Shown in pieces: positions 8,014 through 64,000 of a stretch of 64,000 nucleotides of DNA. A program made the translations under genes and the position numbers. The DNA lies in NCBI GenBank assembly GCA_902800045.1, contig CADCCZ010000006.1:66174-130173 (forward strand). The letters run 5' to 3'. How positions within the stretch are numbered: position 1 is the first letter of the stretch; each line of letters begins with the position of its first letter. Under the pieces are notes generated by a model. The model was given only the letters and a program-made list of their open reading frames with translations. It searched no databases and was not told the origin of the DNA. The stretch comes from an uncultured Bacteroidia bacterium. Lineage in GTDB: Bacteria; Bacteroidota; Bacteroidia; Bacteroidales; ML635J-15.

Positions 8014-8015
8014 TG

Positions 8016-9824
8016 TTATTTCCAGTAGCGAGTTTCGAGATAATTAAGCAGTTCTTTGTAGTCATCGTTTCCTTTCAAGGGGGAAAGAAGTTCTTGGGGA
8101 TCGATGATACGGAATTTGGATTTATCTTTCAAATTTGGAATAAAACAATTTTCCACTGCTTCACGCAATTCTGTATTCCCATTTGGAATCACATTGAGAT
8201 GGAAGAAATTTTTTGCATATCCTTTTTGTACCAATTGTTCCGCTAACAAAGTCTGGCGCATAAGTTCATAACTTGGTTCTTGGAAATAAATGGAATGAGC
8301 TACTCCGTCTTTAGGCGTTTTAAGCCTTGCTGAACTTATTATTTTTGCTCCATAACGATAAAGGCGCGTATCATTTGTTTTGTCTTCATTTTCGTAATTT
8401 TCCGTGTATTTCCATTCAATCGGAATCAGCCATTTTTCTTCACCTTTTCGTGCCACAATCATAGCATCAATTGATGTGCAAAGAACGCCTCTTCTTGCGC
8501 CCTTATCATTTTCACCCAACATTTCATCATTTTTATAAGCAAACTCAAAAGCAATGTAGCCACCATCGTTGTCAAGAGTCGATGGAAGCACTTCATCAAA
8601 ATCCATATTAGTTGCTTTGTTTATAACTGCCAATACTGCATCTTTATCTTCTCGCAAAGCAAAAAGATGATTTAGACAATGAATTTGTGAGGAAAGTAGA
8701 TGACCAGTAGGTTCAATTCCATTTTGCCCCCACCATGCGATTTTAAAATTTTTAAAATATTTTTTCGCTAAACTTCTGATTCCGGATTCCAAATTGAAAT
8801 CATTATAATTAGTATCTAAAATATAGTCTAATTTATAGACTTTAGATTTTTCATTGTTTCCTATTTTTAGAATTCCACCAAACTTTGCCGATTCAAATAT
8901 TGGATTTGATGTCAATTTGAATTGTTTTTCTGTTTCCAAACATTTAAATTCGTGAATTGGTTTATGAAAATATCTAACATATTTGTTACTTAAATAAATA
9001 TTCAGAATATCAGACTTCCGACCTTCTATTAGAGGATGCAAAGCGTCAGCTAGCATATACCCGTTTATGTATTTACATTTCTTCGTTTTATAAAAATCAT
9101 ATAATTTCCCAAAAGAACGATAAGAAGAAGATTCGGGAATTTTAATTTCCCCTTTCATCACATCGACCATTACATTAACATAGAACATCAATTCTGATAT
9201 TATTCCTACTTTTTTGTTTGTCTTTTGTTTCAATTCATAAATATTCAATGTGTTATATTTTATACTCCATATATCTAAAAAACTACTTGGTGTTACAGAT
9301 TTTCCTTTTGATATTTCTTCATTGAACAAATGAACGGGTAATTGTTGGTTTATCACATCACAAAAAGCCTTATTTTCAGCAAGAAAAGCCCTCTCAAGTT
9401 GAGCTTCTTTATGCGAAGCTTTTTTTTCTGCATCATCATTTGGCACATTAATTACCAAATGTAATTTGTCGAATTTTATTATGTCATCTTTGAAACCATC
9501 AGAACATGCCCAAATATACATTTCTTCAAATTTTTTTAGACGGTATAAAAATCTGTTATAGTGTTCTTTTTCGTTTTTAGATGGAGAGAAACTTTTCCCC
9601 GATACTATGACTTTTTCGATATACTCAGGCAACCATGCTTTCAAACAAATGGCCCAACCTTCAAAAGCTGCTGCGTCTGTTTGCATATTTGAGCAAATGC
9701 CATTCTCTGTCATCGTAATAACAAGTTCTTTTCTTTCTGGGTTTATATTAAAATCAATATCTTTAGGAAAATTTACGCGTCTGATTTTTGAACGTAATAG
9801 GTTTAAAATTTCTTGTTTGTTCAT
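8016..9824 (-). CDS. 602-aa protein with two PD-(D/E)xK nuclease-like modules (N-terminal NucS/DUF91-like; C-terminal restriction-endonuclease-like)
   Basis: Module 1: EAQLERAF ... FLDIWSI-x9-NIYELKQK (E, D, ExK). Module 2: HLLSSQIHCLNHLF ... TSIDAMIV-x12-LIPIEWKYTE (D, ExK). The gene is strongly AT-rich. No match to a named enzyme could be made by eye. Confidence 0.5.
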   Translation of the reverse strand: MNKQEILNLLRSKIRRVNFPKDIDFNINPERKELVITMTENGICSNMQTDAAAFEGWAICLKAWLPEYIEKVIVSGKSFSPSKNEKEHYNRFLYRLKKFEEMYIWACSDGFKDDIIKFDKLHLVINVPNDDAEKKASHKEAQLERAFLAENKAFCDVINQQLPVHLFNEEISKGKSVTPSSFLDIWSIKYNTLNIYELKQKTNKKVGIISELMFYVNVMVDVMKGEIKIPESSSYRSFGKLYDFYKTKKCKYINGYMLADALHPLIEGRKSDILNIYLSNKYVRYFHKPIHEFKCLETEKQFKLTSNPIFESAKFGGILKIGNNEKSKVYKLDYILDTNYNDFNLESGIRSLAKKYFKNFKIAWWGQNGIEPTGHLLSSQIHCLNHLFALREDKDAVLAVINKATNMDFDEVLPSTLDNDGGYIAFEFAYKNDEMLGENDKGARRGVLCTSIDAMIVARKGEEKWLIPIEWKYTENYENEDKTNDTRLYRYGAKIISSARLKTPKDGVAHSIYFQEPSYELMRQTLLAEQLVQKGYAKNFFHLNVIPNGNTELREAVENCFIPNLKDKSKFRIIDPQELLSPLKGNDDYKELLNYLETRYWK

Positions 9825-13992: not shown

Positions 13993-14059
13993 AGACGCAA
14001 AATTTTGCGTCTCAATCAATGCAAATCATTGCAATCGGCGCAAATCATTGCGCCGCTAC
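13993..14059. repeat. Cluster of REP-like hairpins at the convergent gcvP/mutS2 junction
   Basis: Hairpins AGACGCAAaattTTGCGTCT, CAATGcaaatCATTG and GGCGCAAatcaTTGCGCC+GCTAC. The 39-mer at 14021-14059 is identical to 25315-25353. Confidence 0.7.
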
Positions 14060-16524: not shown

Positions 16525-16527
16525 AAT

Positions 16528-16597
16528 TTACAATGGACAATTGATAATGGATAATTGACAATTTTCGAATTTTCAAATCTTCAAATCTTCGAATCTT
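16528..16597. repeat. Heptamer array (KGAYAAT type, 16528-16562) abutting an octamer array (YTTCRAAT, 16563-16597)
   Basis: ttacaat ggacaat tgataat ggataat tgacaat, then tttcgaat tttcaaat cttcaaat cttcgaat. The array fills the whole mutS2-start to ftsB-like-stop gap. Confidence 0.85.
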
Positions 16598-16915
16598 CTA
16601 CTCCTCCAATATCACAAGAAATATATCCTCGTCCTCCTCCTTCATGTAGTACTGTTCACGGGCAAACTTCTCGAGTTCTTCCTTTCCCGACATAAGTTCG
16701 TCTAGACGGGTGCTGTTCTCCAAATTTTCCTTCTCGTAGTACTTTTCGTTTTCACGCAGTTCGTGCAACTTGCTCATCTTCTCGAACCTGTCGATCAGAT
16801 TGAAATCGTCGAAAAACGTTATCCAAACAAGGAACAGAATAGCAACCACCCATCCCATGTATTTAGAGGAAAAATCCTTTACCTTACCGAATATTTTCTT
16901 GAACTTTTCTTTCAT
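16598..16915 (-). CDS. Septum formation initiator family protein (FtsB/DivIC-like)
   Basis: 105 aa with one N-terminal TM helix (WVVAILFLVWITFF) followed by a charged coiled-coil segment. Confidence 0.6.
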   Translation of the reverse strand: MKEKFKKIFGKVKDFSSKYMGWVVAILFLVWITFFDDFNLIDRFEKMSKLHELRENEKYYEKENLENSTRLDELMSGKEELEKFAREQYYMKEEDEDIFLVILEE

Positions 16916-16991: not shown

Positions 16992-17153
16992 GGCTAACAG
17001 GCTAGAAGGCTAACAGGCTAGAAGGCTAACAGGCGAGAAGGCTAACAGGCTAAAAGGCTAACAGGCTAAAAGGCTAACAGGCGAGCTGTCTAGCAGAGGA
17101 TCTGTCTGACAGACAGCCAGACCGTTAGACTGCAAGACTGTTAGCCTGTTAGA
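16992..17153. repeat. Array of GGCTAACA/GGCTAGAA-type octamers (16-bp super-unit, about 6.5 copies) plus an inverted partial copy and a CTGTCTGaCAGACAG palindrome
   Basis: ggctaacaggctagaa x2, ggctaacaggcgagaa, ggctaacaggctaaaa x2 ... The segment gttagcctgttag (17140-17153) is the reverse complement of the array word. Confidence 0.85.
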
Positions 17154-17194
17154 CATAAATCAAAAATCGTAAATCGTAAGTCGTAAATATATTG

Positions 17195-19602: not shown

Positions 19603-19608
19603 CAACAA

Positions 19609-19802
19609 CCAGAAACTCAGAAACCAGAAATTCAGAAACCAGAAACTCAGAAACCAAAAACTAGAAACAAGAAACTTGAAACTATTGAACTTTGAACCTT
19701 AAACTTTGAACCATTGAACCTTGTACAGTCGCGGCGCGCCACGACGCAACAAGAAACTTAGAAACAACTAGAAACTTAGAAACGGGCATAGCCCATAGAA
19801 AC
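19609..19802. repeat. Three consecutive octamer word arrays (CAGAAACY, TTGAACYW, AGAAACTT) with an embedded GTCGCGGCGCGCCACGAC hairpin (19728-19745)
   Basis: Read directly from the sequence: ccagaaactcagaaaccagaaattcagaaacc ... ttgaactttgaaccttaaactttgaaccattgaacc ... agaaacttagaaacaactagaaacttagaaac. Confidence 0.85.
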
Positions 19803-21197: not shown

Positions 21198-21381
21198 GCG
21201 AAAAGGCGGACAGGCTAACAGGCTGACAGGCGAACAGGCTAACAGGCTGACAGGCGAACAGGCTAACAGGCGAAAAGGCTAGCAGGCTAACAGGCTAACA
21301 GGCTAACAGGCTAACAGGCTGACAGACGAGAAGGCTAAAAGACTGCAAGACTGCAAGACTGCAAGACTGTAAGACTGTAAG
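21198..21381. repeat. Octamer arrays CAGGCTRA/CAGGCGAA (about 18 units) followed by AAGACTGY x5
   Basis: gacaggctaacaggctgacaggcgaacaggctaacagg ... aagactgcaagactgcaagactgcaagactgtaagactgtaag. The same two words occur at 16992-17153. Confidence 0.85.
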
Positions 21382-22572: not shown

Positions 22573-22662
22573 TAATTTAATTTAATATAGCCGTTGCTCG
22601 CTAGTTTTAGTCGTTGCTCGCAACGACTCTACAAACTGTTAACTTTTAACTATTAACTGATT

Positions 22663-25113: not shown

Positions 25114-25314
25114 AATTAGATTGCAGATTATCAGCCTACTGAAACTTTTTCAAGGGAGTTTTTGTCAATTTCAACAACTTTTTCAAACGACTTTTTCTTA
25201 AACCTGCAACTTTTTCAAGGGACTTTTATAAAACATGCAATCCCTATCCCAAGAAATAAGCCTTTTTTACAGAATGAGGATTTACGTTTTTTGCGGCGCA
25301 ACATTGCAATCGGT

Positions 25315-25401
25315 GCAAATCATTGCAATCGGCGCAAATCATTGCGCCGCTACTACAATCATTGAATTTTTGAACCTTGTACGGTCGCGGCGCGCCACGA
25401 C
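25315..25401. repeat. REP-like hairpins at the convergent priA/glycan-locus junction
   Basis: 25315-25353 is identical to 14021-14059. gaaccttgtacggtcgcggcgcgccacgac (25371-25401) matches 19714-19745 with one mismatch. Confidence 0.8.
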
Positions 25402-46063: not shown

Positions 46064-47059
46064 TCATTTTCTGTTATATCGTTGAGTTCTTGTTTCTACA
46101 ATACGAAGATATGATCGCTTCATCTTGTCGTTAAGGAAAGAGTTGGCTATCAAAACTTTAGTCGCGTCAGGGACAGCAGAGAACACATCCATTATCTTTG
46201 CTATTCTAACAGGTCTCAATCCTATCAACTCGCCAAATCGCTCAAAGTCGGAACGGCAAGGATGACCTGTTTTTTCATATACATCGCTCCTCGGCATTGT
46301 AAGCGACAAGCCGCCATGCAATCCGAAATCATCGCCATCAATATGAATGCTTGTATTCAGTAAATCGTAAGCCGGAGCAAGAGCATAACCCACATCGGTT
46401 CTTATTATCGAAAAATTCTTCAGATGGGCATCTCCATTTCCGTATATATAGTTGAAAACAACCAACTTGAAAAACTGTTCCATAGAGACCATCCATGCCG
46501 GCATATAGCGCTTTATTGCATTGGCTATATCCTCGTAACTGCCGTCGTACTTATAATTTACTCCGCCATCAGCACGTGTTCTGCCTAACAACGATGCGAA
46601 ATCCTCCATTTCGCATTTTTCGCCGCCAAGAGTGATATCAAAACGCTTGGTAATGTAAATTGCCTCACCTTTTGGAAAGAAACACAATCCGTTTTCGGCT
46701 GTAGGTATCCCATAAACCTGGCGGGCAATCTGCATTGTAAGATGCTCGTTTGCCGGTATTTGTTTACGCGTCTCGATAGTCTCGTCCCAAGGTGCAGGTT
46801 TCAAAATGTATTTTGACCGGTCACCTTCAGCTGACAAACGGATCCTACCATTTTCTGCAACTGCGGGAAATTTCTCCTGTACTCCCGAAATTGAGATTCT
46901 ACGCATAGCGCTCTGCAAATCGGGCGAATTGCGGAACGAATCGATCCCGAAGGTGAGTTCGTGCGATATGCGCAAGCCATCAAAGAGGTGACGAATAGCA
47001 ACAGGGCTATAGGTAGCAAATCCTTGAGCAAGTGTCGATGGACAAACATTTACATTCAT
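46064..47059 (-). CDS. HipA-C-terminal-domain Ser/Thr kinase toxin (HipT-like, lacks HipA N-terminal subdomain)
   Basis: ISGVQEKF, YILKP, ITKRFD, MEDFASLLG, YGNGDAHLKNFSII (catalytic loop), APAYDLLNT. Confidence 0.8.
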   Translation of the reverse strand: MNVNVCPSTLAQGFATYSPVAIRHLFDGLRISHELTFGIDSFRNSPDLQSAMRRISISGVQEKFPAVAENGRIRLSAEGDRSKYILKPAPWDETIETRKQIPANEHLTMQIARQVYGIPTAENGLCFFPKGEAIYITKRFDITLGGEKCEMEDFASLLGRTRADGGVNYKYDGSYEDIANAIKRYMPAWMVSMEQFFKLVVFNYIYGNGDAHLKNFSIIRTDVGYALAPAYDLLNTSIHIDGDDFGLHGGLSLTMPRSDVYEKTGHPCRSDFERFGELIGLRPVRIAKIMDVFSAVPDATKVLIANSFLNDKMKRSYLRIVETRTQRYNRK

Positions 47060-47379
47060 ATCTTGCTAACTGTTAGGGAACCGATAAAATCCAAACCACT
47101 AAAAGCACACAACAAGCCAAAATCATCGTCCTCATCGATTTTGTTGGCCCGACAGACTACGCTACGATTCATACCTTCGGGCAATAGATTTGCGAAAAAA
47201 GGGAACAACGTATCGGAATAATACTCAGACTCCGACAACGGAAGAGTTTTGGAAATTGCACCGAACTTCCCATCTAGAACATATTCTCTATCGTACGAAA
47301 ACCGATAGCCTTTGCCGACGACATCCTCTGTCAGCATTCCCGATTTTACTCCATGATTATATATATACAAGGCTCTCAT
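47056..47379 (-). CDS. HipA N-terminal-subdomain protein (HipS-like)
   Basis: 107 aa: YIYNHGVKSGML...YRFSYDREY...LPLSE..Y....LFPFFANLLPEG...D..GLLCAFSGLDFIGSL. ATGA overlap with the kinase gene. Confidence 0.75.
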   Translation of the reverse strand: MRALYIYNHGVKSGMLTEDVVGKGYRFSYDREYVLDGKFGAISKTLPLSESEYYSDTLFPFFANLLPEGMNRSVVCRANKIDEDDDFGLLCAFSGLDFIGSLTVSKI

Positions 47380-47384
47380 TTCTG

Positions 47385-47585
47385 CTATTCGGTATCACGT
47401 TCGACATATTTTATTTCCAGACCTAGCACTTCCAGCAATCGAGTAATTGTAGCAAGCGACGGATTCGACTTTCCTCGTTCGATATCTTTCACTGTAGCAA
47501 GCCCTACCTCCGCCATTTGGGCAAGATCTTCCTGCGATATTTTCAACGCCTTCCGCCGAGTTCTAATTGTTGCTTGCAAATCCAT
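47385..47585 (-). CDS. hipB: XRE-family HTH protein (HipB-like)
   Basis: IRTRRKALKISQEDLAQMAEVGLATVKDIERGKSNPSLATITRLLEVLGLE. The start was set at the ATG at 47585 because the track start is a TTG inside the promoter box. Confidence 0.7.
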   Translation of the reverse strand: MDLQATIRTRRKALKISQEDLAQMAEVGLATVKDIERGKSNPSLATITRLLEVLGLEIKYVERDTE

Positions 47586-47620
47586 AAAGTATGCTTTATT
47601 ATACTTTAGGTGCAAAGATA
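47586..47620 (-). promoter_or_regulatory. -7 box (TATCTTTG, plus-strand caaagata 47613-47620) and inverted repeat AAAGTAT-8 nt-ATACTTT (47586-47607); candidate HipB operator
   Basis: Both elements were read directly. The inverted repeat lies between the box and the ATG. Confidence 0.4.
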
Positions 47621-47660
47621 TAATATTCTATTAATATGAAGTAATAAAAAGTTTATTTTT

Positions 47661-47720
47661 TTAGACTTTTACAAGATAAGCAGGACAAATATAGGTTGAT
47701 ATGATGACGGAAAAGGTCAT
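47661..47720 (-). pseudogene. 19-codon remnant of a GT2 gene start (MTFSVIISTY...)
   Basis: The ATG overlaps the stop of the upstream GT2 (ATGA). 23/27 nt are identical to the start region of the intact GT2 at 44300-44326. The ORF diverges and stops after 19 codons. Confidence 0.5.
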
Positions 47721-54072: not shown

Positions 54073-54345
54073 TTATACATCGTTGGTTTTTATCCACTCC
54101 CATGCATCTTTCGGCAACCATCCTTGATGAGGTTTATGAGATATATCTACTATAAATAAAGAATCGTTCTCATCCATGTTAGGGTGAATTCTGTCAAAGC
54201 ACTGCGCAGGAGTCATCTCTGTCCTAATCAACCAGACAGACTCTAAATAATGCCACCATACTGTACCACTTTGCTTGATAGCACTATACAACGCATCGTA
54301 GTTACGATCGGGTTGCTTTAAATCGTATGTAATCAAAACTATCAT
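54073..54345 (-). CDS. 90-aa protein with a Cas2/VapD-like beta-alpha-beta-beta-alpha-beta pattern
   Basis: MIVLITYDL (beta1), YDALYSAIKQSG (alpha1), WWHYLESVWLIRT (beta2), TPAQCFDRI (alpha2), DSLFIVDIS (beta3). Lies 5 nt downstream of its partner. Confidence 0.4.
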   Translation of the reverse strand: MIVLITYDLKQPDRNYDALYSAIKQSGTVWWHYLESVWLIRTEMTPAQCFDRIHPNMDENDSLFIVDISHKPHQGWLPKDAWEWIKTNDV

Positions 54346-54350
54346 ACCAC

Positions 54351-55019
54351 TTATACTTTAGAGATTTTTTTATACTCTTGTTCTGATATCATCCTAACTT
54401 CAAAACAATCTTTATTAATAACAAAATCATCATTATCCCATAATATCTTCATATATGCCACAGAAACACCTGAACGTGAAGAATAAAATTTTAACGGGAT
54501 AATAAAATCGCCCTTCCCCAATTGAAGGCTCTTTCCGTCTCCCAAAAGAAATAATTTATAAAATTGCTTACTCTCTCCCTTTTCATTAGCAGATGCCATT
54601 CCTTGAAACTTCTGCACAGAAGCAATATCTACGTAATATTTTAGATGAGGCGCAATCACACTTAATTTAGCATTATTACAATCCTTAAATTGTTTTGGTG
54701 TAAATACTTTTCGCACATATCCAGAATCTGCATCACGTTTCTTCAGATATTCATCTACATTTAATGCTGCGTAATCGGCAGTATATTTTCCTTTATTCGT
54801 AATACACACTCTAATAACCATGTTCTTATCCACCGAAGAACTATTAATAGAATCCATTGAAACAATTTCAACATAAGGCTCCTCATTTGCTATGGACATG
54901 TTTATTTGAGGTCTATTCCACCATTTTCGAATCGGACTCCAAAATAGAGCAACAAGTACAGCCCCCAAAGTACCTATTGCTGTTAACCAATCTGGTAGTA
55001 TCTTAAAAATTTCATCCAT
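54351..55019 (-). CDS. 222-aa single-pass membrane-anchored protein, unknown function
   Basis: N-terminal TM WLTAIGTLGAVLVALFW followed by a beta-rich soluble region. AT-rich. Confidence 0.4.
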   Translation of the reverse strand: MDEIFKILPDWLTAIGTLGAVLVALFWSPIRKWWNRPQINMSIANEEPYVEIVSMDSINSSSVDKNMVIRVCITNKGKYTADYAALNVDEYLKKRDADSGYVRKVFTPKQFKDCNNAKLSVIAPHLKYYVDIASVQKFQGMASANEKGESKQFYKLFLLGDGKSLQLGKGDFIIPLKFYSSRSGVSVAYMKILWDNDDFVINKDCFEVRMISEQEYKKISKV

Positions 55020-55157: not shown

Positions 55158-55640
55158 TTATACCATTATTGATTCAACAAAACGCAACTGTGCTAAGACC
55201 TTCTCTGTATGAAATGAGACTTGGTTAAAAAGGACGTGTGTCATTAATTGAACAACAGCAGCTTCGGCACTCAGTTCCCCGTTCTCATACAGACTTATCG
55301 TAGCATACAAACTATCATTAGCTACAGGACCTAATACAATGTCATATTCATGCAATGTAGCATAACGCCTATTGGCTACCACAAAATCAAGCCATTCCTT
55401 TGTTGCCCCATTATATTCCATGATACGGAAATCTTTCTTTTGCAAAAGGTCATCATCCACCTCATACACAGAAACAACTGCATTACCGCCACCTGCACGA
55501 TCTCGGCGAATACGAGCCCAACGTGCTGCCTGATCAAAATCTACAGTTGTATAAAACCCTTTACCATAATCCGTATTAGGGCGACCTTGACGGAGATTCG
55601 GGTTCTTAACCGATACTATAGAACCATGATAGAGTTTCAT
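55158..55640 (-). CDS. DUF3990-like protein
   Basis: MKLYHGS...DYGKGFYTT..FDQAARWA matches my memory of the DUF3990 N-terminus. ATGA overlap with the upstream partner. Confidence 0.5.
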   Translation of the reverse strand: MKLYHGSIVSVKNPNLRQGRPNTDYGKGFYTTVDFDQAARWARIRRDRAGGGNAVVSVYEVDDDLLQKKDFRIMEYNGATKEWLDFVVANRRYATLHEYDIVLGPVANDSLYATISLYENGELSAEAAVVQLMTHVLFNQVSFHTEKVLAQLRFVESIMV

Positions 55641-56062
55641 TTCTCTTGATTTTTACGGTTTTTAATAAAGATTTCTATATCCTGAAGGATGGCATCTTTC
55701 CCTTGAGTGTGAAGCATATCAAAGCCATTAACCAAATACACATCCACGTGATAGTGGCGGAAAAGAGCGTATGCTTCCAAGGATGTCATATTATACTTCT
55801 TGGCGTAATTCTCCATACAAAAGGTCAAAAAGACTACCACATTATTGGTGATGACACTACCACTAGACAACCAACTCTGCTCCAACAACTTATACAAAGA
55901 CTCCGTATCCAAATACCACCACTTAGCATCTTCATCATATAACTTAGCGTAAAATGGGGTATCATATATGTAGCCCAATGCCACATTCACAGGAATGTGC
56001 TTGCGATGCGAGACCAATAACGCTAACTGCGATATTTTCAATGGAATGATTGATGCACTCAT
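55637..56062 (-). CDS. DUF3791-like protein
   Basis: 141-aa helical protein immediately upstream of and overlapping the DUF3990-like gene, the usual pairing of these two families. Confidence 0.45.
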   Translation of the reverse strand: MSASIIPLKISQLALLVSHRKHIPVNVALGYIYDTPFYAKLYDEDAKWWYLDTESLYKLLEQSWLSSGSVITNNVVVFLTFCMENYAKKYNMTSLEAYALFRHYHVDVYLVNGFDMLHTQGKDAILQDIEIFIKNRKNQEK

Positions 56063-56068
56063 AGTTTG

Positions 56069-56509
56069 TTATTTTATTCCTTTATACTTCAAAAATTCAT
56101 CATAATCGCGAATATAGTCCTCTGCCTCATAATGCTCACTTGCCAAGCACAACAATACAGCTCCGCTCGAAAAATCATCCAAATCACGCCAAATACCTGG
56201 GACAACTAACAATCCATAGTACGAGCGATTCAAATTAAAAGCCTTCTTGTTCGATCCATCATCAAGAGTCACAGAAAAAGAACCACTTGCAGCAATAATT
56301 AACTGAAACAATTGCTTATGAGCATGAGCCCCCCGGCTTTCTCCTCCAGGAACATCATACAAATAATAAATTCGCTTTATATCAAACGGGACATCTATTC
56401 CACCTTCTATAGGAGTAAGATTTCCACGTGGGTCGCTTATCTTCCGCAAGTCAATAATACGACAATCTGATATTGTACTCTTTTTTACATCCATAACTTT
56501 AGCCTTCAT
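56069..56509 (-). CDS. fdtA: dTDP-4-keto-6-deoxyglucose 3,4-ketoisomerase (FdtA/QdtA, WxcM-like cupin)
   Basis: Colinear with FdtA as I recall it: D.RG.L..IE....PF.IKR.YY..D.....RG.HAHK.L.Q......GS......DG...........GL.V.P..W....DFSS..V....AS..Y.E.DYIR.YD.F.KY. Confidence 0.85.
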   Translation of the reverse strand: MKAKVMDVKKSTISDCRIIDLRKISDPRGNLTPIEGGIDVPFDIKRIYYLYDVPGGESRGAHAHKQLFQLIIAASGSFSVTLDDGSNKKAFNLNRSYYGLLVVPGIWRDLDDFSSGAVLLCLASEHYEAEDYIRDYDEFLKYKGIK

Positions 56510-57779
56510 ATTGGATTCTTACATCGTTATTGTTTAAACGCAACACACCAGGCATGGTTCCTTGATTATATCCCATATCAGACAATGTATTTTCTACGGA
56601 GAAACATTGTTCAAACCCCGAATACACCACATATCGCTGATTTTCACCAAAGAAAATCTCTGCTCTGTATTTTCCTGCATTTATTGTATATGGTTTTAAT
56701 TCAAAATCAACAGAATAGAAACCTATTTTCGAGTCTTTTTCACCTATTTCACCGATTGCTTGCCCCACTTGAAAAACAGTCACGTTATCCAATGTAACAA
56801 CTTTCATATTAACATCGAGCATCGCATTTTCTTTACAACACTTAAATGTCAATCTGAATTTTATTCCCGATTCAATATCTATCTGTGTCCGTCCATCTCC
56901 AGCAATAATTTCAAATGATTTTATACGGATAACATCGTTACCAGGAGCTTTAGCAAGGTCATCAAAATATTGATTTTCAGAGCTACCACTTTCTCCGATA
57001 TAATAATCAACCGTTTCTTTGACCCCTCCAACATACTTTAAAGAACCATTTTCTAACATAACACCAGTCTTACACAAAGACTTTATACTCGCCATATTAT
57101 GACTAACAAACAGCACTGTCCTTCCCTCTCCTTTGCTTACATCTTGCATCTTACCAATAGCCTTCTTCTGGAATTCGGCATCACCAACAGCAAGCACCTC
57201 ATCAACCACAAGGATTTCAGGGTCGAGATGGGCGGCAATGGCAAAGCCAAGACGAACGGTCATTCCGCTGGAGTAGCGTTTAACTGGGGTGTCAATGTAG
57301 CGTTCGCAACCAGAGAAATCTACAATTTCATCAAGCTTGCGGGTAATTTCCTGCTTGGTCATACCCATAATGGCACCATTCATATAGATGTTTTCGCGGC
57401 CAGTCATTTCGGGATGAAAACCTGTGCCGACCTCAAGGAGAGAGGCTATACGACCTTTGTACTTTATGCTACCTGTTGTAGGTTTGGTTACACGCGATAG
57501 CAATTTCAGCAAGGTGGATTTGCCTGCACCGTTCTTGCCGATAATACCTACGACATCGCCCTGCTCGATTTCCATGTTTATGTCTTTGAGCGCCCACACA
57601 TATTCACTGTCAGCCTTTTGGGAACGGTCGTTCACAGAACCGATTTTAAGGTATGGGTCTTCCTTGCGAAGAATTTTGGTTGTCCACCACCTGTTCAGGT
57701 CGTGGCTCAATGTTCCCGTCGAGATTACACCCAGACGATATTGCTTCGAAACGTTTTCTATTTTTATTGCTGTTGACAT
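56499..57779 (-). CDS. wzt: O-antigen/glycan ABC transporter ATP-binding protein Wzt with extra C-terminal domain
   Basis: GIIGKNGAGKSTLLK (Walker A), YSSGM (signature), ILVVDEVLAVGD (Walker B), and about 170 extra C-terminal residues. The start was set at the ATG at 57779 (MSTAIKIENV). Confidence 0.85.
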   Translation of the reverse strand: MSTAIKIENVSKQYRLGVISTGTLSHDLNRWWTTKILRKEDPYLKIGSVNDRSQKADSEYVWALKDINMEIEQGDVVGIIGKNGAGKSTLLKLLSRVTKPTTGSIKYKGRIASLLEVGTGFHPEMTGRENIYMNGAIMGMTKQEITRKLDEIVDFSGCERYIDTPVKRYSSGMTVRLGFAIAAHLDPEILVVDEVLAVGDAEFQKKAIGKMQDVSKGEGRTVLFVSHNMASIKSLCKTGVMLENGSLKYVGGVKETVDYYIGESGSSENQYFDDLAKAPGNDVIRIKSFEIIAGDGRTQIDIESGIKFRLTFKCCKENAMLDVNMKVVTLDNVTVFQVGQAIGEIGEKDSKIGFYSVDFELKPYTINAGKYRAEIFFGENQRYVVYSGFEQCFSVENTLSDMGYNQGTMPGVLRLNNNDVRIQYEG

Positions 57780-57785
57780 AGACGG

Positions 57786-57793
57786 CAAAATTA
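57786..57793 (-). promoter_or_regulatory. -7-like box (TAATTTTG on minus strand) only 6 nt upstream of the wzt ATG
   Basis: Plus-strand caaaatta. If functional, it would give a leaderless or near-leaderless wzt mRNA. Confidence 0.3.
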
Positions 57794-57802
57794 ATTAATA
57801 AT

Positions 57803-57935
57803 TGACAATGGGCAATGGATAATTGATAATTGATAATGGATAATTGATAATGGATAATTGACAATGGATAATGGATAATTGATAATGGATAATGGACAAT
57901 GGACAATTGATAATTGATAATGGACAATGGATAAT
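57803..57935. repeat. 19-unit heptamer array (KGAYAAT)
   Basis: tgacaat gggcaat ggataat tgataat ... ggacaat ggataat = 133 bp = 19 x 7. The last nucleotide overlaps the abiEii stop codon. Confidence 0.95.
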
Positions 57936-58921
57936 TATTTGTGGTGAGATGTTATTATACCTATAATCCTTATCATAGCTTGAAAAATATCATCTGCAGA
58001 AGGTATTTCCTTATATGACAATTCGGGCAGTTCTCGCAGATATGTTGACTGCAGTCGTTCCCAGACTCCTCGAAAATCTTTAAGTAAAGGTGATTCTGCA
58101 ATATCTCGTTTTTGCCATCCGACAGGTCTCTGAAATGTAACCATGTCATGGTTAAGCAAATTTTCGAAATCTTTATTAAAATCAATGCTTTGCATATATT
58201 TCATGCACTTCTCATCATTTGTCAGATAATATAAATCATAGAAATGACGTATATGAGCATTCAAATCAACAATATAATCGTCACCCATTGAACACCTAAC
58301 TAGCGAAACTAACTTCTCTGTCATAGTTCTTCGCCTATCAAGCACAGTCATGTTGAACGATTGCATTTCATAATCCGCAATTATATCCTGTCGATTTTTC
58401 GCATTCAGAAAATCTGTTACAAAACTATTTATTTGCCGCGTTTCACAAGGATAGGGATTTGCAAATGAATTTATTTCCAAAAGGATCTCTCCATGTTTGA
58501 ATGCATTTGAGGCATTAGGTATATCTGAAATTGTAGGATAAGCAAAAAAAGCTTTATAATAATGAGACCCTTTACTTGTTAAACCGACTTTGGGAATTTC
58601 CTCCAATTCCCAAGACATGATATGAGCAGTCTTTTTTATGATGTTCTTTAATTGATTGCCTGTCATTTGCTCCGAATTTGCAATTGCAATATCAATATCT
58701 TCCGAGAATCTGGAGCCTATGCCATAGGCTTTTGTCAAACTTGTTCCTCCTTTAAAAACAGCATGACAATCCTTATCAGCAGCAGCAAGCAGCTGAAGAC
58801 TTCTACATATCCAATAGTCCTTCTCAACAAATTCGCGCTTTATGCGAAAATGCTGAGAAGTCATTTCTACAGCCTGCGAGAAAAGCTCTTTATTTTTATG
58901 CAAATTCATACAATCCTCCAT
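57935..58921 (-). CDS. abiEii: Nucleotidyltransferase AbiEii/AbiGii-family toxin
   Basis: FKGGTSLTKAYGIGSRFSEDIDIAI (GG[ST]...RxSxDxD NTase motif). An alternative ATG at 58909 gives an ATGA overlap with abiEi. Confidence 0.8.
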   Translation of the reverse strand: MEDCMNLHKNKELFSQAVEMTSQHFRIKREFVEKDYWICRSLQLLAAADKDCHAVFKGGTSLTKAYGIGSRFSEDIDIAIANSEQMTGNQLKNIIKKTAHIMSWELEEIPKVGLTSKGSHYYKAFFAYPTISDIPNASNAFKHGEILLEINSFANPYPCETRQINSFVTDFLNAKNRQDIIADYEMQSFNMTVLDRRRTMTEKLVSLVRCSMGDDYIVDLNAHIRHFYDLYYLTNDEKCMKYMQSIDFNKDFENLLNHDMVTFQRPVGWQKRDIAESPLLKDFRGVWERLQSTYLRELPELSYKEIPSADDIFQAMIRIIGIITSHHK

Positions 58922-59625
58922 TCTTTAGCATTAGGCAAGGCATTTTCGGAAATACCCAATTTATACACAGTTGCTGCATTTAGCGACTTTTTCAATGACA
59001 CAGCATCGTCGCCAATGCACTCCAACAGCGCACCCAGCACGGCTCGCACCGAACTTGTATATGACAAAGCAAGACGAGCAATATCTTTTCGCTCTTTTAT
59101 ATTCAGCGCGGCCAATATATTCTTTATAACCGCAATTGCAGCATCAGGTGTCGTTGCCGGAATATGACGAATAAATCTTATCGCATCCAACAATTGTAAC
59201 AAATGCACGTTATTCCTTGTAATTACATTATGTTGTAACACAAAATTTATTTTGTTTTCGCCTCGCATTATAGCACGTCGATACGTATTAGTGCCAATAT
59301 GATATGCAGAAGATATTTGTGTAGTAAGCCCCATTTGTGCAAAAGCGCGAGTTCCTGTAATGTATCCGATTATTGATTTCCCCTTATACAAAAATTCGCG
59401 TAACAACCAATCACTTGATGGAGGCATAATTCCAAATACAGATTGCTTCGGCTTATCGTATTTACCCTTTGACAATTTCCTTATCTCACCATCGCGAACC
59501 ATTTTATTGAGTATCCTACTCACAACTGAAGGACTTTTCACAACATCATAGAAATCGGATGATGTGAAAACATATCCAGCCCTAAACCTATTTATCTTAT
59601 TTCTAACTAAATCAATATTTTGCAT
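58906..59625 (-). CDS. abiEi: AbiEi-family antitoxin/transcriptional regulator (N-terminal wHTH)
   Basis: FTSSDFYD....PSVVSRILNKMVRDGEIRKLSKGKY (wHTH). Positioned immediately upstream of and overlapping the AbiEii gene. Confidence 0.65.
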   Translation of the reverse strand: MQNIDLVRNKINRFRAGYVFTSSDFYDVVKSPSVVSRILNKMVRDGEIRKLSKGKYDKPKQSVFGIMPPSSDWLLREFLYKGKSIIGYITGTRAFAQMGLTTQISSAYHIGTNTYRRAIMRGENKINFVLQHNVITRNNVHLLQLLDAIRFIRHIPATTPDAAIAVIKNILAALNIKERKDIARLALSYTSSVRAVLGALLECIGDDAVSLKKSLNAATVYKLGISENALPNAKEWRIV

Positions 59626-59656
59626 ATCATAATTCAGAATACCAAAAAACTAAAAA

Positions 59657-59697
59657 AAGTCAAGTTTTTTACGTAAATAAATTGACTTGCAAAAATA
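59657..59697 (-). promoter_or_regulatory. -7 box (TATTTTTG; plus-strand caaaaata 59690-59697) followed by inverted repeat AAGTCAA-18 nt-TTGACTT (59657-59688); candidate AbiEi operator
   Basis: Read directly. The inverted repeat lies between the box and the abiEi ATG (59625). Confidence 0.35.
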
Positions 59698-59732
59698 AGA
59701 AATATTTTTTATTCCGGCAAATACGAACAAAT

Positions 59733-60232
59733 GGATAATTGATAATTGATAATGGATAATTGATAATTGATAATGGATAATTGATAATGGATAATGGATA
59801 ATGGATAATGGATAATGGATAATGGACAATGGATAATGGACAATGGATAATGGACAATGGACAATGGACAATGGACAATGGACAATGGATAATGGATAAT
59901 GGACAATGGATAATGGATAATTGACAATGGATAATGGATAATGGACAATGGACAATGGATAATGGATAATGGACAATGGATAATGGATAATGGACAATGG
60001 ATAATGGATAATTGATAATGGATAATTGATAATGGATAATGGATAATGGACAATGGATAATGGACAATGGATAATGGATAATGGACAATGGATAATGGAT
60101 AATTGACAATGGATAATGGATAATGGACAATGGACAATGGATAATGGATAATGGATAATGGATAATGGATAATTGATAATAATGGATAATTGATAATGGA
60201 TAATTGATAATGGATAATGGACAATGGATAAT
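59733..60232. repeat. 71-unit heptamer array (KGAYAAT) with one 3-nt AAT insertion
   Basis: Counted unit by unit: 41 GGATAAT, 18 GGACAAT, 10 TGATAAT, 2 TGACAAT, plus aat at 60181-60183, for 500 bp in total. Confidence 0.97.
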
Positions 60233-60240
60233 TATTTTGA

Positions 60241-60299
60241 ACATCGACGCAAAGCATTGCGTCGCTACTGGGGTGCCGATATTTATTGTATAAATCATT
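60241..60299. repeat. Left copy of a 59-bp direct repeat flanking the hipBA module
   Basis: acatcgacgcaaagcattgcgtcgctacTggggtgccgatatttattgtataaatcatt. 58/59 identical to 62281-62339. Contains the hairpin CGACGCAAagcaTTGCGTCG+CTAC. Confidence 0.9.
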
Positions 60300-60322
60300 A
60301 CGCTTGCGTTCGACGCGCCATT

Positions 60323-61834
60323 CTATTTAATCAAGAATTCATCGACATACCTTTGCGTCATTTCTGCAGACATGTGTTTCCATCCAGCATCCATAATCTT
60401 GCGCGCCAATGAACTATTTGCACCAAACACATACCGCTTGCATTCGCCATCCACTTTTGCACACAACTGAATATCATGCTTACGCGTCATCCTCCAGTGC
60501 ACATCACTAATCGCACGACCATCAGATGTCATATAATCGGGGACAGGCGTCGGCATATAATGCGTCATACCTCCAATATACCTCTCAGGCAACAAACCTG
60601 CCAGATACTCCTCTATCTTGTCCGCCCAGTAATCATCTACGCCTTGAGCTTTGAGATAAGACCAACATTCGGACAGTACACGACAAACCTTATCAATCTT
60701 ACCCTGAGCCCTTCCTATACTATTATCCGCTGCAAAACGGAGCAAGTCGCTTTCTGTTATATCCGACAATTTACCACCAACTGACAGGCAATGATTATTC
60801 TCATAACCAGATGTTTCCGGATTGGATGTAAAAGTCATGTCATAGGCTGGAGCTATATGCCACTCTCCATTCTCTACCATCTGGAATGAGAAGTTCTTCT
60901 GATGGTCGTCAACATTTCCGCCAAACACATTAAACACCATGCGCATAAACAACTCGTCTTGCTCGCCCTGCGGTATCTGAAGCATACGCGACACACGCAT
61001 CAAATCATCGTAACTATCCGCACTAGTACTCATCGCAGCCAAAGTCTGCGTATGGATTCTTTTCCCTCTCTGCCTGTCGAACCGCTCAGTCAAGAAATGC
61101 TTCTTTCCGTCAATCTCAACCAACCGAGACGGCATCATCCTTATACCTATAGCTTTTGCCATCTCGTAGTATGCCTGTTCGACCAATGTATATGGGAACC
61201 GATCAGTCTCAGCGAACTTTAATATATAATAAGTGTAATCTGCACCAAAATCAATCTGACCGGAACGTATTTCTTGCGTCTCGTTGTGAATCGCAATGAT
61301 GGCTTTCGGATGCTTTCCTCCAGCAGATGTTCCTATAGAATATAGACTTTGCAGTGTCAACGATTCTTCAGGCAAAACCATAACGTCCATCCGCTCTTCG
61401 AAAATACGTTGCGCCAACGAATACAAACTAGACAATGCCAACTCTCCTGGAATAGCAGACAACCCTACTGCCGGACGAAACTCCAAAGCCCCCATTCCCC
61501 TACTACCTATATAGGCCAATTTATCAACCGGTGTAATATCCTTTGAACGAATGTTATTCTCCTTTGCCCAGCATTCAAACACCAAACTTCCCCATTTATC
61601 CGGCAACGAATCGGCAATAAACGGCGGCAACCCCTGATAAACAGGTTCACTGCTTCCCAATATGGGACGAGCAGCAGCAACACTATGAATCGATGCGCAC
61701 AATGGCGCAATGTCAATTCCTGCACTTATGAATGCTGGATTGTACTCAAACACAGCCCTTGAAAGTTTCTTGTCCCAATATATGCGACCAACCTCCCGAT
61801 TCCACAACAATATAGACAGCACATTATTTTGCAT
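60323..61834 (-). CDS. hipA: HipA-family Ser/Thr kinase toxin (full length, with about 60-aa C-terminal extension)
   Basis: N-terminal subdomain (VGRIYWD...AVFEYNP, LPPFIADSLPDKWG), SAGGKHPKA, LTERFDR, and GGNVDDHQKNFSF (catalytic loop). The start was set at the ATG at 61834 because the track start is a GTG. Confidence 0.85.
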   Translation of the reverse strand: MQNNVLSILLWNREVGRIYWDKKLSRAVFEYNPAFISAGIDIAPLCASIHSVAAARPILGSSEPVYQGLPPFIADSLPDKWGSLVFECWAKENNIRSKDITPVDKLAYIGSRGMGALEFRPAVGLSAIPGELALSSLYSLAQRIFEERMDVMVLPEESLTLQSLYSIGTSAGGKHPKAIIAIHNETQEIRSGQIDFGADYTYYILKFAETDRFPYTLVEQAYYEMAKAIGIRMMPSRLVEIDGKKHFLTERFDRQRGKRIHTQTLAAMSTSADSYDDLMRVSRMLQIPQGEQDELFMRMVFNVFGGNVDDHQKNFSFQMVENGEWHIAPAYDMTFTSNPETSGYENNHCLSVGGKLSDITESDLLRFAADNSIGRAQGKIDKVCRVLSECWSYLKAQGVDDYWADKIEEYLAGLLPERYIGGMTHYMPTPVPDYMTSDGRAISDVHWRMTRKHDIQLCAKVDGECKRYVFGANSSLARKIMDAGWKHMSAEMTQRYVDEFLIK

Positions 61835-62144
61835 GGCGTACACGTTTCGGTTTCTTAGCGTTAAGCTTAGACATCATATAGGGCGAAAGCGGTATTGGAG
61901 GGAACAATTCATTTATCGACTCCAACCGCCCCACAATCCGCAACAGTGACAACAAATTGCCAAGCGTAATATTCTTTGCCTTGCCTGTCTCAAAGTTACG
62001 GATTGTTATCAGGCTGACGCCAACCTTTTCCGCCACTTCATGCTGTGTCAAATTTGCATTCAGACGATAGTCTCTAAATTGTTCACCTAACGACTGCACT
62101 ATCTCCGCATTCGACATTCCCAATATGTTATCTGCGTCTATCAT
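61824..62144 (-). CDS. hipB: XRE-family HTH protein (HipB-like antitoxin)
   Basis: LTQHEVAEKVGVSLITIRNFETGKAKNITLGNLLSLLRIVG. Overlaps hipA by 11 nt. Confidence 0.65.
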   Translation of the reverse strand: MIDADNILGMSNAEIVQSLGEQFRDYRLNANLTQHEVAEKVGVSLITIRNFETGKAKNITLGNLLSLLRIVGRLESINELFPPIPLSPYMMSKLNAKKPKRVRHAK

Positions 62145-62169
62145 TATTGTCTAAATAAAAAAAACGCCA

Positions 62170-62177
62170 CAAAGGTA
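62170..62177 (-). promoter_or_regulatory. -7 promoter box (TACCTTTG on minus strand)
   Basis: Plus-strand caaaggta lies 25 nt upstream of the 62144 ATG. Confidence 0.4.
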
Positions 62178-62280
62178 AAAAAAATTTCCAATAAATACAA
62201 ATATTACATCTAAAGGACAACAAATTTTCTGTTATATAAATTTTTAGATGTAATTTGGAGGCGTTTATATGCATGTGTAA

Positions 62281-62339
62281 ACATCGACGCAAAGCATTGC
62301 GTCGCTACAGGGGTGCCGATATTTATTGTATAAATCATT
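62281..62339. repeat. Right copy of the 59-bp direct repeat flanking the hipBA module
   Basis: Offset is exactly 2040 bp from the left copy, with one mismatch (A for T at repeat position 29). Confidence 0.9.
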
Positions 62340-62699
62340 TAATTATTACGTTCTATTTGTCCGAAACGCAACCATTTTTTTAGGGAACTATATACAAGTT
62401 GACTAAATTTTGTGCTATTAAACTGTCATTGCTTGTTTCACTGCGCGAGCTAAAGGTTCCGCAAGTTAGAACAATAACGCGATACGGAACGGGGAGCGTA
62501 ATATTGTTCAACTGTGCGGAATCTCCTATAGAAACGTTTTCAATTGGAGATTACTCACTCCGTTTCGTGAAGGAGTTCCGCATAAACGAACTCACAAGCA
62601 ACGTTCCTTATGCTGTTCGTTCTGTTTTACGGAATGACTCAGAGGGCATAGGACAAAAGCACATTGCGTCAACACGTATATAGCTACTTTTTTTTATTT

Positions 62700-62822
62700 G
62701 TCGTTGCTCGTTTATTAGTCGTTGCTCGCAACGGCTCTACGGGGTTTGGATATTGTCAGTCGTTGCTCGCAACGGCTCTACGGGGTTTGGATATTGTCAG
62801 TCGTTGCTCGCAACGACTCTAC
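62700..62822. repeat. Tandem 41-bp repeat (2 full units + partial units), each carrying the GTCGTTGCtcGCAACGrC hairpin + TCTAC
   Basis: gtcgttgctcgcaacggctctacggggtttggatattgtca at 62718-62758 and 62759-62799. The partial unit at 62800-62822 is identical to 22610-22632. Confidence 0.9.
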
Positions 62823-63750
62823 AACATTCCAATGACCGCCCTTGTCGGGGCCAACACGAACAATAAATCCTTTTTCTCGTAATGTATTTAAATGAACACG
62901 TATAGTATCCCTATGCTTCCCTGTCATATCAGACAACTTATCATAGGTAATCTTTGGATTATCCTTTAACAACGAAACTATCAAAACATCTAAATCATCC
63001 AATTTTTCAGGCGGATTTTCAGGCGGATTTTCAGGCGGATTTTCAGGCGGATTTTCAGGCGGATTTTCAGGCGGATTTTCTATGATTGTTCTCTTAACAT
63101 CCAGCCTCCTGAACACCACCAAAGCACAGTCCATCTTTTCATCACGGAAACTTACGAGCTTGGAATCTTCTTCATTCCATTGCTGCATCTTGTCAAATCC
63201 AAAACCAGCATTCTCGCACAACTTTGCGCAACGGAACAATTTGGCAATAACAGGATTGCGAGGAATTGAAACATCAGTACGCAGCAGTTCGTCAATTGGA
63301 CGAGGGAAACCGCCTGGATTTTCAAACTCAATCCGATCTGTAAACACCCTTATCCGCGACTTCATCGGACTGAAATAATCAGCATGCATAAGCATATTTA
63401 CCAAGGCCTCACGGAGAGCATCCAACTTAGGCGACTCTTCAATGCCAACACCCATCTGGTTTATTCCCACAAAAACATTATCCGCATACAATCTAAGTCT
63501 CTGTATTATAGCCAGATAATATTCCCAAATATTTTCCATTTCCGAAATTCGGAATGTATATCGGTTCGTAGCATTGGCATACGATGTTCCTGGAATCTCA
63601 AAATAATCAATTCTAAAATCTGCAAAATGGTGTCCTATTGACAATTCGTTACCAAACATCAGTAAGCCTCCGTATGTAAGATTGCCATTCTTGGCAATCT
63701 GCAATTTCTCGCAAAATTCAGTATCGTCCAGATTATTATGGACATTTAAC
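62778..63750 (-). pseudogene. 5'-truncated paralog of the AlbA_2/HATPase_c_4 regulator (AlbA_2 domain missing)
   Basis: There is no ATG; the frame is open from the stop at about 63750. NNLDDTEFCEKLQIAKNGNLTYGGLLMFG aligns with residues about 195-225 of the 546-aa paralog. LREALVNMLMHADY is retained. A (PPEN)x6 linker is encoded by a 12-bp tandem repeat (63008-63079). The 3' end runs into the 41-bp repeat. Confidence 0.6.
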
Positions 63751-63798
63751 TATTTTTTATTTATTGAGACGTTGCACGCAACGTCGCTACAAATTTTA

Positions 63799-63847
63799 AT
63801 TATTCATTGTCAATTATCAATTGTCCATTGTCAATTGTTAATTGTTA
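63799..63847. repeat. 7-unit heptamer array in inverted orientation (ATTRTCM)
   Basis: attattc attgtca attatca attgtcc attgtca attgtta attgtta. The last unit contains the wzm stop codon. Confidence 0.8.
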
Positions 63848-64000
63848 AACGGTGTCCATGAAATCTTTTTCCACCTTATTGAATATAATTATTCCCACGA
63901 ACAGCATCAGCAGCATAAACCCGAAACTGTATGCCAGCCACAGCCACGAGAATGTACCCTGCCCTATGGCGCCATACTTGAAGGTCTCGATTATGGATGT
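63845..64000 (-). CDS. wzm: C-terminal 51 codons of an ABC-2 type glycan-export permease (Wzm); 5' end outside the window
   Basis: My translation: ...TFKYGAIGQGTFSWLWLAYSFGFMLLMLFVGIIIFNKVEKDFMDTV*. It shows a terminal TM helix plus an F.KVEK.F.D.V tail typical of Wzm/TagG. The ORF is not in the track because it is under 60 aa within the window. Confidence 0.55.
   Translation of the reverse strand, partial: TSIIETFKYGAIGQGTFSWLWLAYSFGFMLLMLFVGIIIFNKVEKDFMDTV

Follow-up and report, generated by a model that had tools for sequence, protein, structure and literature searches.

We analyzed a window of 64,000 nucleotides from an uncultured rumen bacterium of the Bacteroidales (GenBank contig CADCCZ010000006.1, positions 66,174 to 130,173), in which wzm and wzt, the permease and ATPase genes of an ABC transporter for glycan export, lie 6,065 bp apart and are separated by toxin-antitoxin (TA) and related genes. 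This region is a repeat-bounded accessory-gene hotspot in a glycan-export operon, assembled from known parts (AbiE, HipBA, heptamer repeats, and hairpins that resemble repetitive extragenic palindromic (REP) elements), and the arrangement appears to be common yet undescribed in Bacteroidales. With moderate confidence, we favor a reading in which the operon encodes a functional Wzm/Wzt exporter and its wzm-wzt spacer is a permissive landing pad for self-contained TA and abortive-infection modules, filled and eroded stepwise by recombination between repeats. Positions are those of the window, the features are listed in Table 1, and loci compared with the window are designated by L numbers.

The Wzm of this strain is known from its C-terminal 51 residues, and its full-length assignment comes through L015 and L088. 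This tail, which matches no family when taken alone, shares 98% identity with the C-terminal end of an L015 open reading frame (ORF; 3873-4712, 279 aa) that matches the Pfam family ABC2_membrane (1.8e-22), and L088 bears out the same assignment. The best matches of the L015 ORF in the PDB are the permease chains 6m96_B and 6oih_D. Wzt, called from its ATG as a 426-aa gene on three independent contigs, matches ABC_tran in Pfam (1.1e-21); its best NCBIfam matches are TagH/Wzt models, below their equivalog cut-offs, and in the PDB it matches 8dku and 7k2t best (1e-61). We take these four structures to be the WzmWzt O-antigen exporter of Aquifex aeolicus. The alignment with 8dku extends to residue 372 of 426, and Pfam calls no domain beyond ABC_tran. 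The genes 3' of wzt encode FdtA, a formyltransferase, a DegT aminotransferase, and glycosyltransferases (GT2), and every gene between 54 and 64 kb is on the minus strand. With an ABC-2 permease, an ABC ATPase with a C-terminal extension, and a place within a glycan-biosynthesis locus, the system is like other Wzm/Wzt glycan exporters, except that in the model systems wzm and wzt are adjacent or overlapping.

An earlier note on this DNA, made from the sequence alone, had recognized the C-terminus of a Wzm in the ORF at the window edge and the start of wzt at 57779, and both assignments hold. Its inventory of the intervening DNA was also correct, every element being found at or near the position claimed and the cargo genes being co-oriented with the operon on the minus strand throughout. 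Two lengths had to be revised: the direct repeats do flank hipBA but measure 60 bp instead of 59, and the spacer described as structured is indeed so, over ~308 bp instead of 360.

Both TA modules in the gap are intact, with dN/dS values of 0.15-0.17 that indicate purifying selection (0.16 for hipA against L015 and L087, 0.15 for abiEii; hipB ranges from 0.07 to 0.29). The first is like type II HipBA systems in that the gene of a helix-turn-helix (HTH) antitoxin overlaps that of a kinase toxin with Couple_hipA and HipA_C domains (Pfam, 3.5e-15 and 1.6e-41), HipB itself matching the couple_hipB model at 1e-10, under the cut-off of the model. It differs from known HipBA by a HipA of 503 aa with a C-terminal extension and by the duplicated 60-bp unit, bearing a REP-like hairpin, that flanks the pair. 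The second has the overlapping abiEi-abiEii pair (4 nt) and the strong PADLOC and Pfam matches of AbiE, a type IV TA and abortive-infection system. A palindrome in the promoter region is expected for autoregulation by AbiEi, and the abiE control region contains one, in keeping with such regulation; the sequence of this region is also found upstream of abiEi in L092, L093, and L101. Unlike known AbiE systems, the pair sits between two transporter genes of an operon, with heptamer arrays on either side. We infer that hipBA and abiE serve phage defense or stabilization of the locus, and not glycan export. Homologues of HipA at 71-77% identity (L089, L090) are co-oriented within glycan operons, and in L090 an abiE pair adjoins the hipA homologue.

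The remaining cargo gene is a regulator that lacks the AlbA_2 N-terminal domain. Its full-length homologue in L014 (536 aa, AlbA_2/HATPase_c_4/Fic-like_C) has such a domain (SLFN_AlbA_2), and L015 retains only remnants of the gene, which in the window is probably a pseudogene. The linker of the truncated protein contains an (ENPP)n stretch encoded by a perfect in-frame 12-bp repeat of 6.4 copies (63004-63080). GC content was considered as a sign of foreign origin and proved uninformative, with 44-45% in hipBA and 36-38% in abiE, against 45% in housekeeping genes and 36.5% in the glycan locus.

Table 1. Features of the wzm-wzt region and of other cargo in the same operon (window positions)
Feature	Positions	Strand	Basis or remark
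wzm 3' end (ABC-2 permease), last 51 codons and stop	63845-64000	minus	match to L015 ORF
Heptamer array 1, 5.7 units, in the opposite orientation to arrays 2 and 3	63806-63845	.	Tandem Repeats Finder (TRF)
REP-like hairpin C, GTAG tag, 8-bp stem, short loop	63768-63790	minus	
5'-truncated AlbA_2-type regulator, 308 codons, HATPase_c_4 and winged HTH	62778-63704	minus	Pfam
Three head-to-tail REP-like hairpins D	62693-62822	minus	include 41-bp tandem repeat 62717-62822
Structured element of ~308 bp, like a miniature inverted-repeat transposable element (MITE)	~62382-62689	.	fold z-score, terminal inverted repeats
60-bp repeat copy 1: REP-like hairpin A and 31-nt 5' context	62280-62339	minus	
-7 box candidate TACCTTTG, Bacteroidetes-type	62170-62177	minus	26 nt upstream of hipB
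hipB, HTH antitoxin	61824-62144	minus	Pfam, NCBIfam
hipA, Couple_hipA and HipA_C kinase toxin, 503 aa	60323-61834	minus	Pfam
60-bp repeat copy 2: REP-like hairpin A	60240-60299	minus	
Heptamer array 2, 503 bp, 71.4 units as assembled	59730-60232	.	TRF
abiE control region	59659-59697	minus	-7 box candidate TATTTTTG at 59690-59697 and palindrome
abiE palindrome GTCAA..TTACGTAA..TTGAC	59659-59686	minus	between -7 box candidate and abiEi start
abiEi, antitoxin/repressor, DUF6088	58906-59625	minus	PADLOC AbiEi 4.2e-45, Pfam
abiEii, nucleotidyltransferase toxin	57935-58909	minus	PADLOC AbiEii 4e-85, Pfam AbiEii 5e-29
Heptamer array 3, 138 bp, 19.7 units	57798-57935	.	TRF
-7 box candidate TAATTTTG	57786-57793	minus	6 nt upstream of wzt ATG
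wzt, ABC ATPase with C-terminal extension	56499-57779	minus	Pfam, NCBIfam, PDB
DUF3791/DUF3990 pair, PADLOC candidate system PDC-M13	55158-56062	minus	directly after fdtA
hipB/hipS/hipT-like tripartite module	46064-47700	minus	same glycan operon

The comparison with relatives carries the case for stepwise filling. L015, a rumen metagenome-assembled genome (MAG) with 92-97% nucleotide identity across the region, has both hipBA and abiE. In L087 and L088, hipBA is present at 97% identity and abiE is missing, the order being wzm, inverted array, hairpins, 60-bp unit, hipBA, 60-bp unit, four heptamer units, and wzt. L014, whose Wzm tail and N-terminal part of Wzt are each 92% identical to those of the window, has neither module: its wzm is followed by a 23S_rRNA_IVP gene, the full regulator, hairpin D, a single unit of the 60-bp type, ~75 bp, and wzt. 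Hence, less-filled states of the slot do exist among relatives, although the empty site that the earlier note had suggested looking for, wzm and wzt separated by nothing but a short heptamer array, was not found as such. The uninterrupted form itself exists in distant loci, where the two genes are adjacent or overlapping (L079, L055, L081, L048, L020, and L027).

The boundaries of the two indels can be read from the same loci. The hipBA indel is bounded by the duplicated 60-bp hairpin unit, its copies being directly repeated and 98% identical, and its outer flanks match those of the single copy in L014. Both breakpoints of the abiE indel fall within the heptamer tract, and in alignment A1 L087 corresponds to the left edge of the window's array joined directly to the right edge. 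These boundaries bear on the proposal that the heptamer arrays are the substrate through which cassettes accumulate, which is supported by the abiE breakpoints and by the variation in array length, and is not supported for hipBA, bounded as it is by the 60-bp unit.

We propose the following order of events. The AlbA_2-type regulator, now truncated, would have occupied the slot first. The entry of hipBA would then have been accompanied by duplication of the 60-bp unit carrying a GTAG-tagged REP-like hairpin. The abiE pair sits within what would have been a short heptamer tract just upstream of wzt, now divided into two arrays that later expanded. Finally, the MITE-like element would have inserted in the lineage of the window. 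For the mechanism, which like the direction of the events we infer, the likeliest candidate is generic recombination at repeated intergenic DNA, driven by homology or microhomology. Circular intermediates could, for example, integrate and excise in the Campbell manner, or unequal exchange and slippage could be at work. Under such a scheme no dedicated integrase would be involved, and the REP-like hairpins and heptamer arrays would be genome-wide intergenic elements that happen to supply homology.

The hairpins are found well beyond the hipBA flanks. The 60-bp repeat, the 41-bp repeat, and the segment 63768-63790 share a GTAG tag, a perfect stem of 8-9 bp, and a loop of 2-4 nt, and the D cluster overlaps the 3' end of the regulator ORF. 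The corresponding pattern, GTAGMGNCGYWRYG, has nine matches in the window, against 0.04 expected, all on the minus strand and either extragenic or at gene ends, and five matches in L087. Besides six occurrences within 60255-63790, it is found at 14046-14059, 22619-22632, and 25340-25353; these other hairpins stand beside mutS2, between the genes of phosphofructokinase (PFK) and priA, and 3' of a glycosyltransferase gene. In the first of these three, the tag occupies 14056-14059, and its TAG doubles as the stop codon of mutS2. In their tag, stem, and loop, their extragenic position mostly just 3' of genes, their tandem clusters, and the presence of several stem families within one genome, they are like GTAG-tagged REP elements. 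A survey found the GTAG type in Proteobacteria, Cyanobacteria, Chloroflexi, and PVC, and for Bacteroidetes reported no type other than CGTC (Di Nocera et al. 2013, PMC3733652); the hairpins described here differ from them by their Bacteroidetes host and by having all nine copies in one orientation, head to tail. A scan of viral contigs for hairpin A gave no matches.

The ~308-bp element between the D cluster and the first 60-bp copy has 21-nt terminal inverted repeats (62388-62408 and 62663-62683), and its predicted RNA fold is far more stable than that of shuffled sequence (z = -5.45). It is missing from the same site in L015, L087, and L088, and we read it as MITE-like because of this absence and of its terminal repeats. 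That it is a known RNA family was considered and rejected, as a search of 57000-64000 against Rfam with permissive E-values gave no match.

The arrays have units of the family ATTRTCM (in array 2, read in gene orientation, ATTATCC, ATTGTCC, and ATTATCA). As claimed earlier, they touch the stop codons of wzm and abiEii: array 1 abuts the former, is kept in L015 and L087, and forms inverted-repeat pairs with array 3, which spans the DNA from the abiEii stop codon to the -7 box candidate of wzt. The further claim that arrays mark every junction does not hold, since the one between the regulator and hipB has REP-like hairpins and the MITE-like element and no heptamers. Array 3 recurs on the independent contig L002 and has 6.7 units in L015. 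The copy number of array 2 varies from 71.4 in the window to 7.4 in L015 and ~4 in L087, the first count being insecure, as independent short-read contigs, assembled from a different sample, break off within the arrays.

Short tandem intergenic repeats are known from other bacteria, the short tandemly repeated repetitive (STRR) sequences of cyanobacteria being one example. Closer to the present case are intergenic heptanucleotide repeats such as the TAACTGA direct repeats of MacGregor 2015 (PMC4679880); repeats of this kind are reported there for a few Bacteroidetes, in up to 43 copies. The arrays described here are like heptanucleotide long simple-sequence repeats in their 7-nt tandem units, their intergenic position, often directly upstream of start codons, and their copy-number polymorphism. 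They differ from the TAACTGA repeats in unit family, in length as assembled (71 units), and in that they coincide with the breakpoints of a module indel.

This coincidence can be explained without giving the arrays any role. Modules could enter and leave by illegitimate insertion and deletion anywhere in permissive intergenic DNA, the flanking repeats being merely what most intergenic DNA of this lineage consists of, and the arrays could expand later by replication slippage, once the spacer is unconstrained. We consider this alternative possible but rather unlikely. According to work quoted in PMC4679880, heptanucleotide repeats are the most frequent class of long simple-sequence repeats and have been ascribed to slippage. 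Furthermore, the array units at the flanks of abiE are specific to each host: abiE homologues are flanked on both sides by AACGTAA-type units in L092 and by ACCTAYW in L101, just as the hipBA homologue of L089 is flanked by ATGTRTR-type units, and in L093 abiE lies in array-free DNA. That these homologues in L092, L101, and L089 have the heptamer of their own host on both sides also counts, however, in favor of recombination at the arrays. Against the bystander alternative stands the duplication of the 60-bp unit around hipBA, with outer flanks matching a single-copy state, which is hard to obtain by random illegitimate insertion. The distribution of the arrays also speaks against it, since three of the four ATTRTCM-type arrays in the 64 kb fall in the 6-kb cargo region (the fourth is at 16523-16563). 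Moreover, across related loci the spacers in wzm-wzt gaps are modestly enriched in arrays (11/63 versus 39/525, odds ratio 2.6, p = 0.014, in a test that ignores phylogenetic non-independence).

The non-independence in this test and the insecure count of array 2 are among several points that weigh against recombination between repeats as we propose it. Arrays of other 7-8-bp units adjoin mutS2, a DivIC-like gene, holA, a second MutS-family gene, and the PFK gene in the same window. Moreover, when viral contigs were scanned for runs of five ATTRTCM units, 33 stretches came up (L103-L135, IMG/VR), several on bona fide phage contigs with terminase, portal, and capsid genes and up to 13 arrays per 10 kb. 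Two other cargo modules of the same operon, PDC-M13 and the hipB/hipS/hipT-like one, have no arrays at their junctions. The arrays, being present beside housekeeping genes and in phages and lacking at this other cargo, may thus be bystanders and not substrates. They are a general intergenic feature and not specific to cassettes, and the repeats of the region are probably no dedicated site of gene capture. The direction of the abiE event is a further point. In L092 the order is wzm-abiEi-abiEii-wzt, with AbiE 76-77%, the Wzm tail 72.5%, and Wzt 65% identical to their counterparts in the window, and abiE could therefore be ancestral and lost from L087 and L088 by array recombination; this layout is equally compatible with an independent insertion of abiE. 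The arrays mark the abiE breakpoints whichever direction held. Finally, no circular intermediate or population heterogeneity was observed.

The same caution applies to the promoter candidates. The 5' ends of wzt and of each module carry a -7 box candidate of the form TAnnTTTG, while over the whole window this motif is not enriched (74 observed, 69 expected). As this count is not above chance, the promoter assignments were made from position and conservation: TACCTTTG, which would act as a promoter, is conserved upstream of hipB in L089, and the start region of wzt, including TAATTTTG, is conserved in L014, L015, and L087. Expression of wzt probably occurs either by read-through or from the conserved -7 box in front of it, in which case this clade can dispense with strict wzm-wzt coupling.

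Chromosomal integrons are TA-rich and their cassette arrays are co-oriented, and the region is like sedentary chromosomal integrons and defense hotspots in its co-oriented, TA-rich accessory modules, the repeats between them, and their variable presence among relatives. This suggests a second alternative, dedicated site-specific capture, in which the GTAG hairpin units, and possibly the heptamers, are the sites of a recombinase acting in trans, either a REP-associated tyrosine transposase (RAYT) or IS200-type Y1 transposase or an integron-like tyrosine recombinase, and the region is an integron-like cassette array. The co-oriented modules are indeed separated by repeated hairpins, hipBA lies between direct 60-bp copies where the empty site has one, and the GTAG tag is a feature linked to RAYTs (PMC3733652). 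We nevertheless consider such a system improbable, because the boundaries differ between modules (the REP unit for hipBA, a heptamer tract for abiE), no attC site was found, L014 keeps a hairpin at the empty site, and no recombinase is within reach. On inspection of the sequence, the hairpin is a simple perfect stem of 8-9 bp, and the module boundaries show none of the imperfect R''/L''-L'/R' palindromes with a GTTRRRY core that bound promoterless cassettes; here, in contrast, each module has its own promoter candidate. The flanks examined reach ~4.5 kb in the upstream direction (in L015 and L088) and 16 kb in the downstream direction (in L001), and no integrase or transposase was found among their genes. 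An IS200/IS605-type transposon was considered for hipBA in particular and rejected, as the empty site of such an element would be free of hairpins and homologues of hipBA occur elsewhere (L089-L091) without the hairpin.

A broader version of repeat-driven capture deserves mention as a speculation, which we think unlikely. The GTAG hairpins and the ATTRTCM and AATTnnn arrays could be portable sites of integrase-free, integron-like capture that thread autonomous defense and TA modules co-directionally into operons of rumen and hindgut Bacteroidales, and perhaps of their phages. If true, this would explain why cargo-split wzm-wzt pairs are the majority in the clade, and would mean that glycan-export operons are especially targeted.

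A misassembly, with cargo wrongly joined to wzm and wzt at low-complexity repeats during assembly or binning, is extremely improbable. Short-read contigs do break in the arrays, and the 503-bp array cannot be reliably sized from short reads. The junctions themselves recur on independent contigs from other samples and assemblers (abiEii-array-wzt in L002, the whole arrangement in L001, and the MITE-like element, hairpin A, hipBA, hairpin A, and array in L086), as well as in diverged relatives at 87-97% identity (L015, L087, L088).

The split is frequent. We surveyed 44 related loci of Bacteroidales and Fibrobacter that have a homologue of the Wzm tail upstream of wzt, and found gaps of 239-7,020 bp in 34 and gaps shorter than 120 bp in only ~10. 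The earlier note had contrasted the split with the adjacency seen in characterized systems; the split is real, but it is not an exceptional disruption, as most of these loci have the two genes apart. Glycan genes (GDP-mannose dehydratase, epimerase, PEP mutase, LicD, methyltransferase) occupy some of the gaps, and many contain small accessory genes, namely 23S_rRNA_IVP, PDDEXK_3, AlbA_2 regulators, AAA_14/DUF4143, DUF3990, or a barnase-like gene, nearly all co-oriented. Our literature searches returned nothing on TA modules between wzm and wzt, nor on 23S rRNA IVP genes in Bacteroidetes, heptanucleotide repeats in Bacteroides, or STRR sequences.

These results show that this clade has not conserved the tight coupling of wzm and wzt that model systems had led one to assume, and they add a lineage with few earlier descriptions to the known range of long heptamer arrays and of REP-like elements with a GTAG tag. 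If the gain and loss of modules bounded by repeats is confirmed, it would offer a testable route by which anti-phage and TA modules enter the surface-glycan operons of abundant rumen Bacteroidales, and a single block open to exchange would then unite glycan type with abortive infection, both of them traits that face phages. There is also a practical consequence: the repeats break short-read assemblies exactly at cargo boundaries, and the context of defense systems is therefore systematically lost in rumen MAGs.

A further exchange may have taken place within wzt. Its nucleotide similarity to L015, L014, and L087 (86-90%) ends after ~750 nt, near 57040-57090, at the end of the ATPase domain, and the C-terminal domain and the downstream glycan genes differ, which suggests serotype switching by recombination within wzt.

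The ends of the cargo region also resemble each other. In the window lineage, the spacer next to wzm has the appearance of an inverted copy of the spacer next to wzt, and arms of ~50 nt (57795-57845 and 63798-63848, 86% complementary) enclose the whole cargo. A unique 20-mer within the heptamers, agctacgctgagctgaaggt, is inverted between L087 (600-619) and L014 (5354-5373). The invertible segment that these inverted heptamer arms suggest was rejected, since all five independent versions of the cargo have the same orientation.

Arrays are not restricted to the ATTRTCM family. About half of 80 related loci have 7-8-bp arrays with differing units, such as AGTTAAA at every junction of L014, AGTTAGG in L018, and GTTAAG in L083. 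In the window, housekeeping spacers, including that of priA, are built largely of tandem units of 7-8 or 15-19 bp (16523-16598, 16992-17188, 19607-19783, 21204-21381, and 25143-25345), with units AATTGAC, AATCTTCA, GGCTAACA/ACAGGCTA, AAGACTGC, TAAATCG, and AACCAGA; the AATCTTCA family also occurs in L074 and L125. The phage arrays of the ATTRTCM/AATTnnn family are on contigs of 33-65% GC, in both orientations and between structural genes, with several arrays per contig, for example in L110 (1-10278) and L105 (1-8302). In L110, a TnpB gene (OrfB_IS605, 7722-8972) sits between arrays. The unit TTATCCA/TTGTCCA is identical to the first 7 nt of a DnaA box.

In L088, a stretch of ~2 kb (821-2799) that precedes the wzm operon contains neither an ORF of at least 80 aa nor an Rfam match at the gathering threshold. 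The two genes that follow the PDC-M13 pair (54073-55019; 222 and 90 aa) have no Pfam, NCBIfam, or PADLOC match. The second Hip module consists of a 66-aa HTH protein, a 107-aa Couple_hipA protein (HipS-like), and a 331-aa HipA_C protein (HipT-like), and has its own TATCTTTG box. Both AbiE and PDC-M13 are among the most abundant defense systems of rumen MAGs (PMC13356809).

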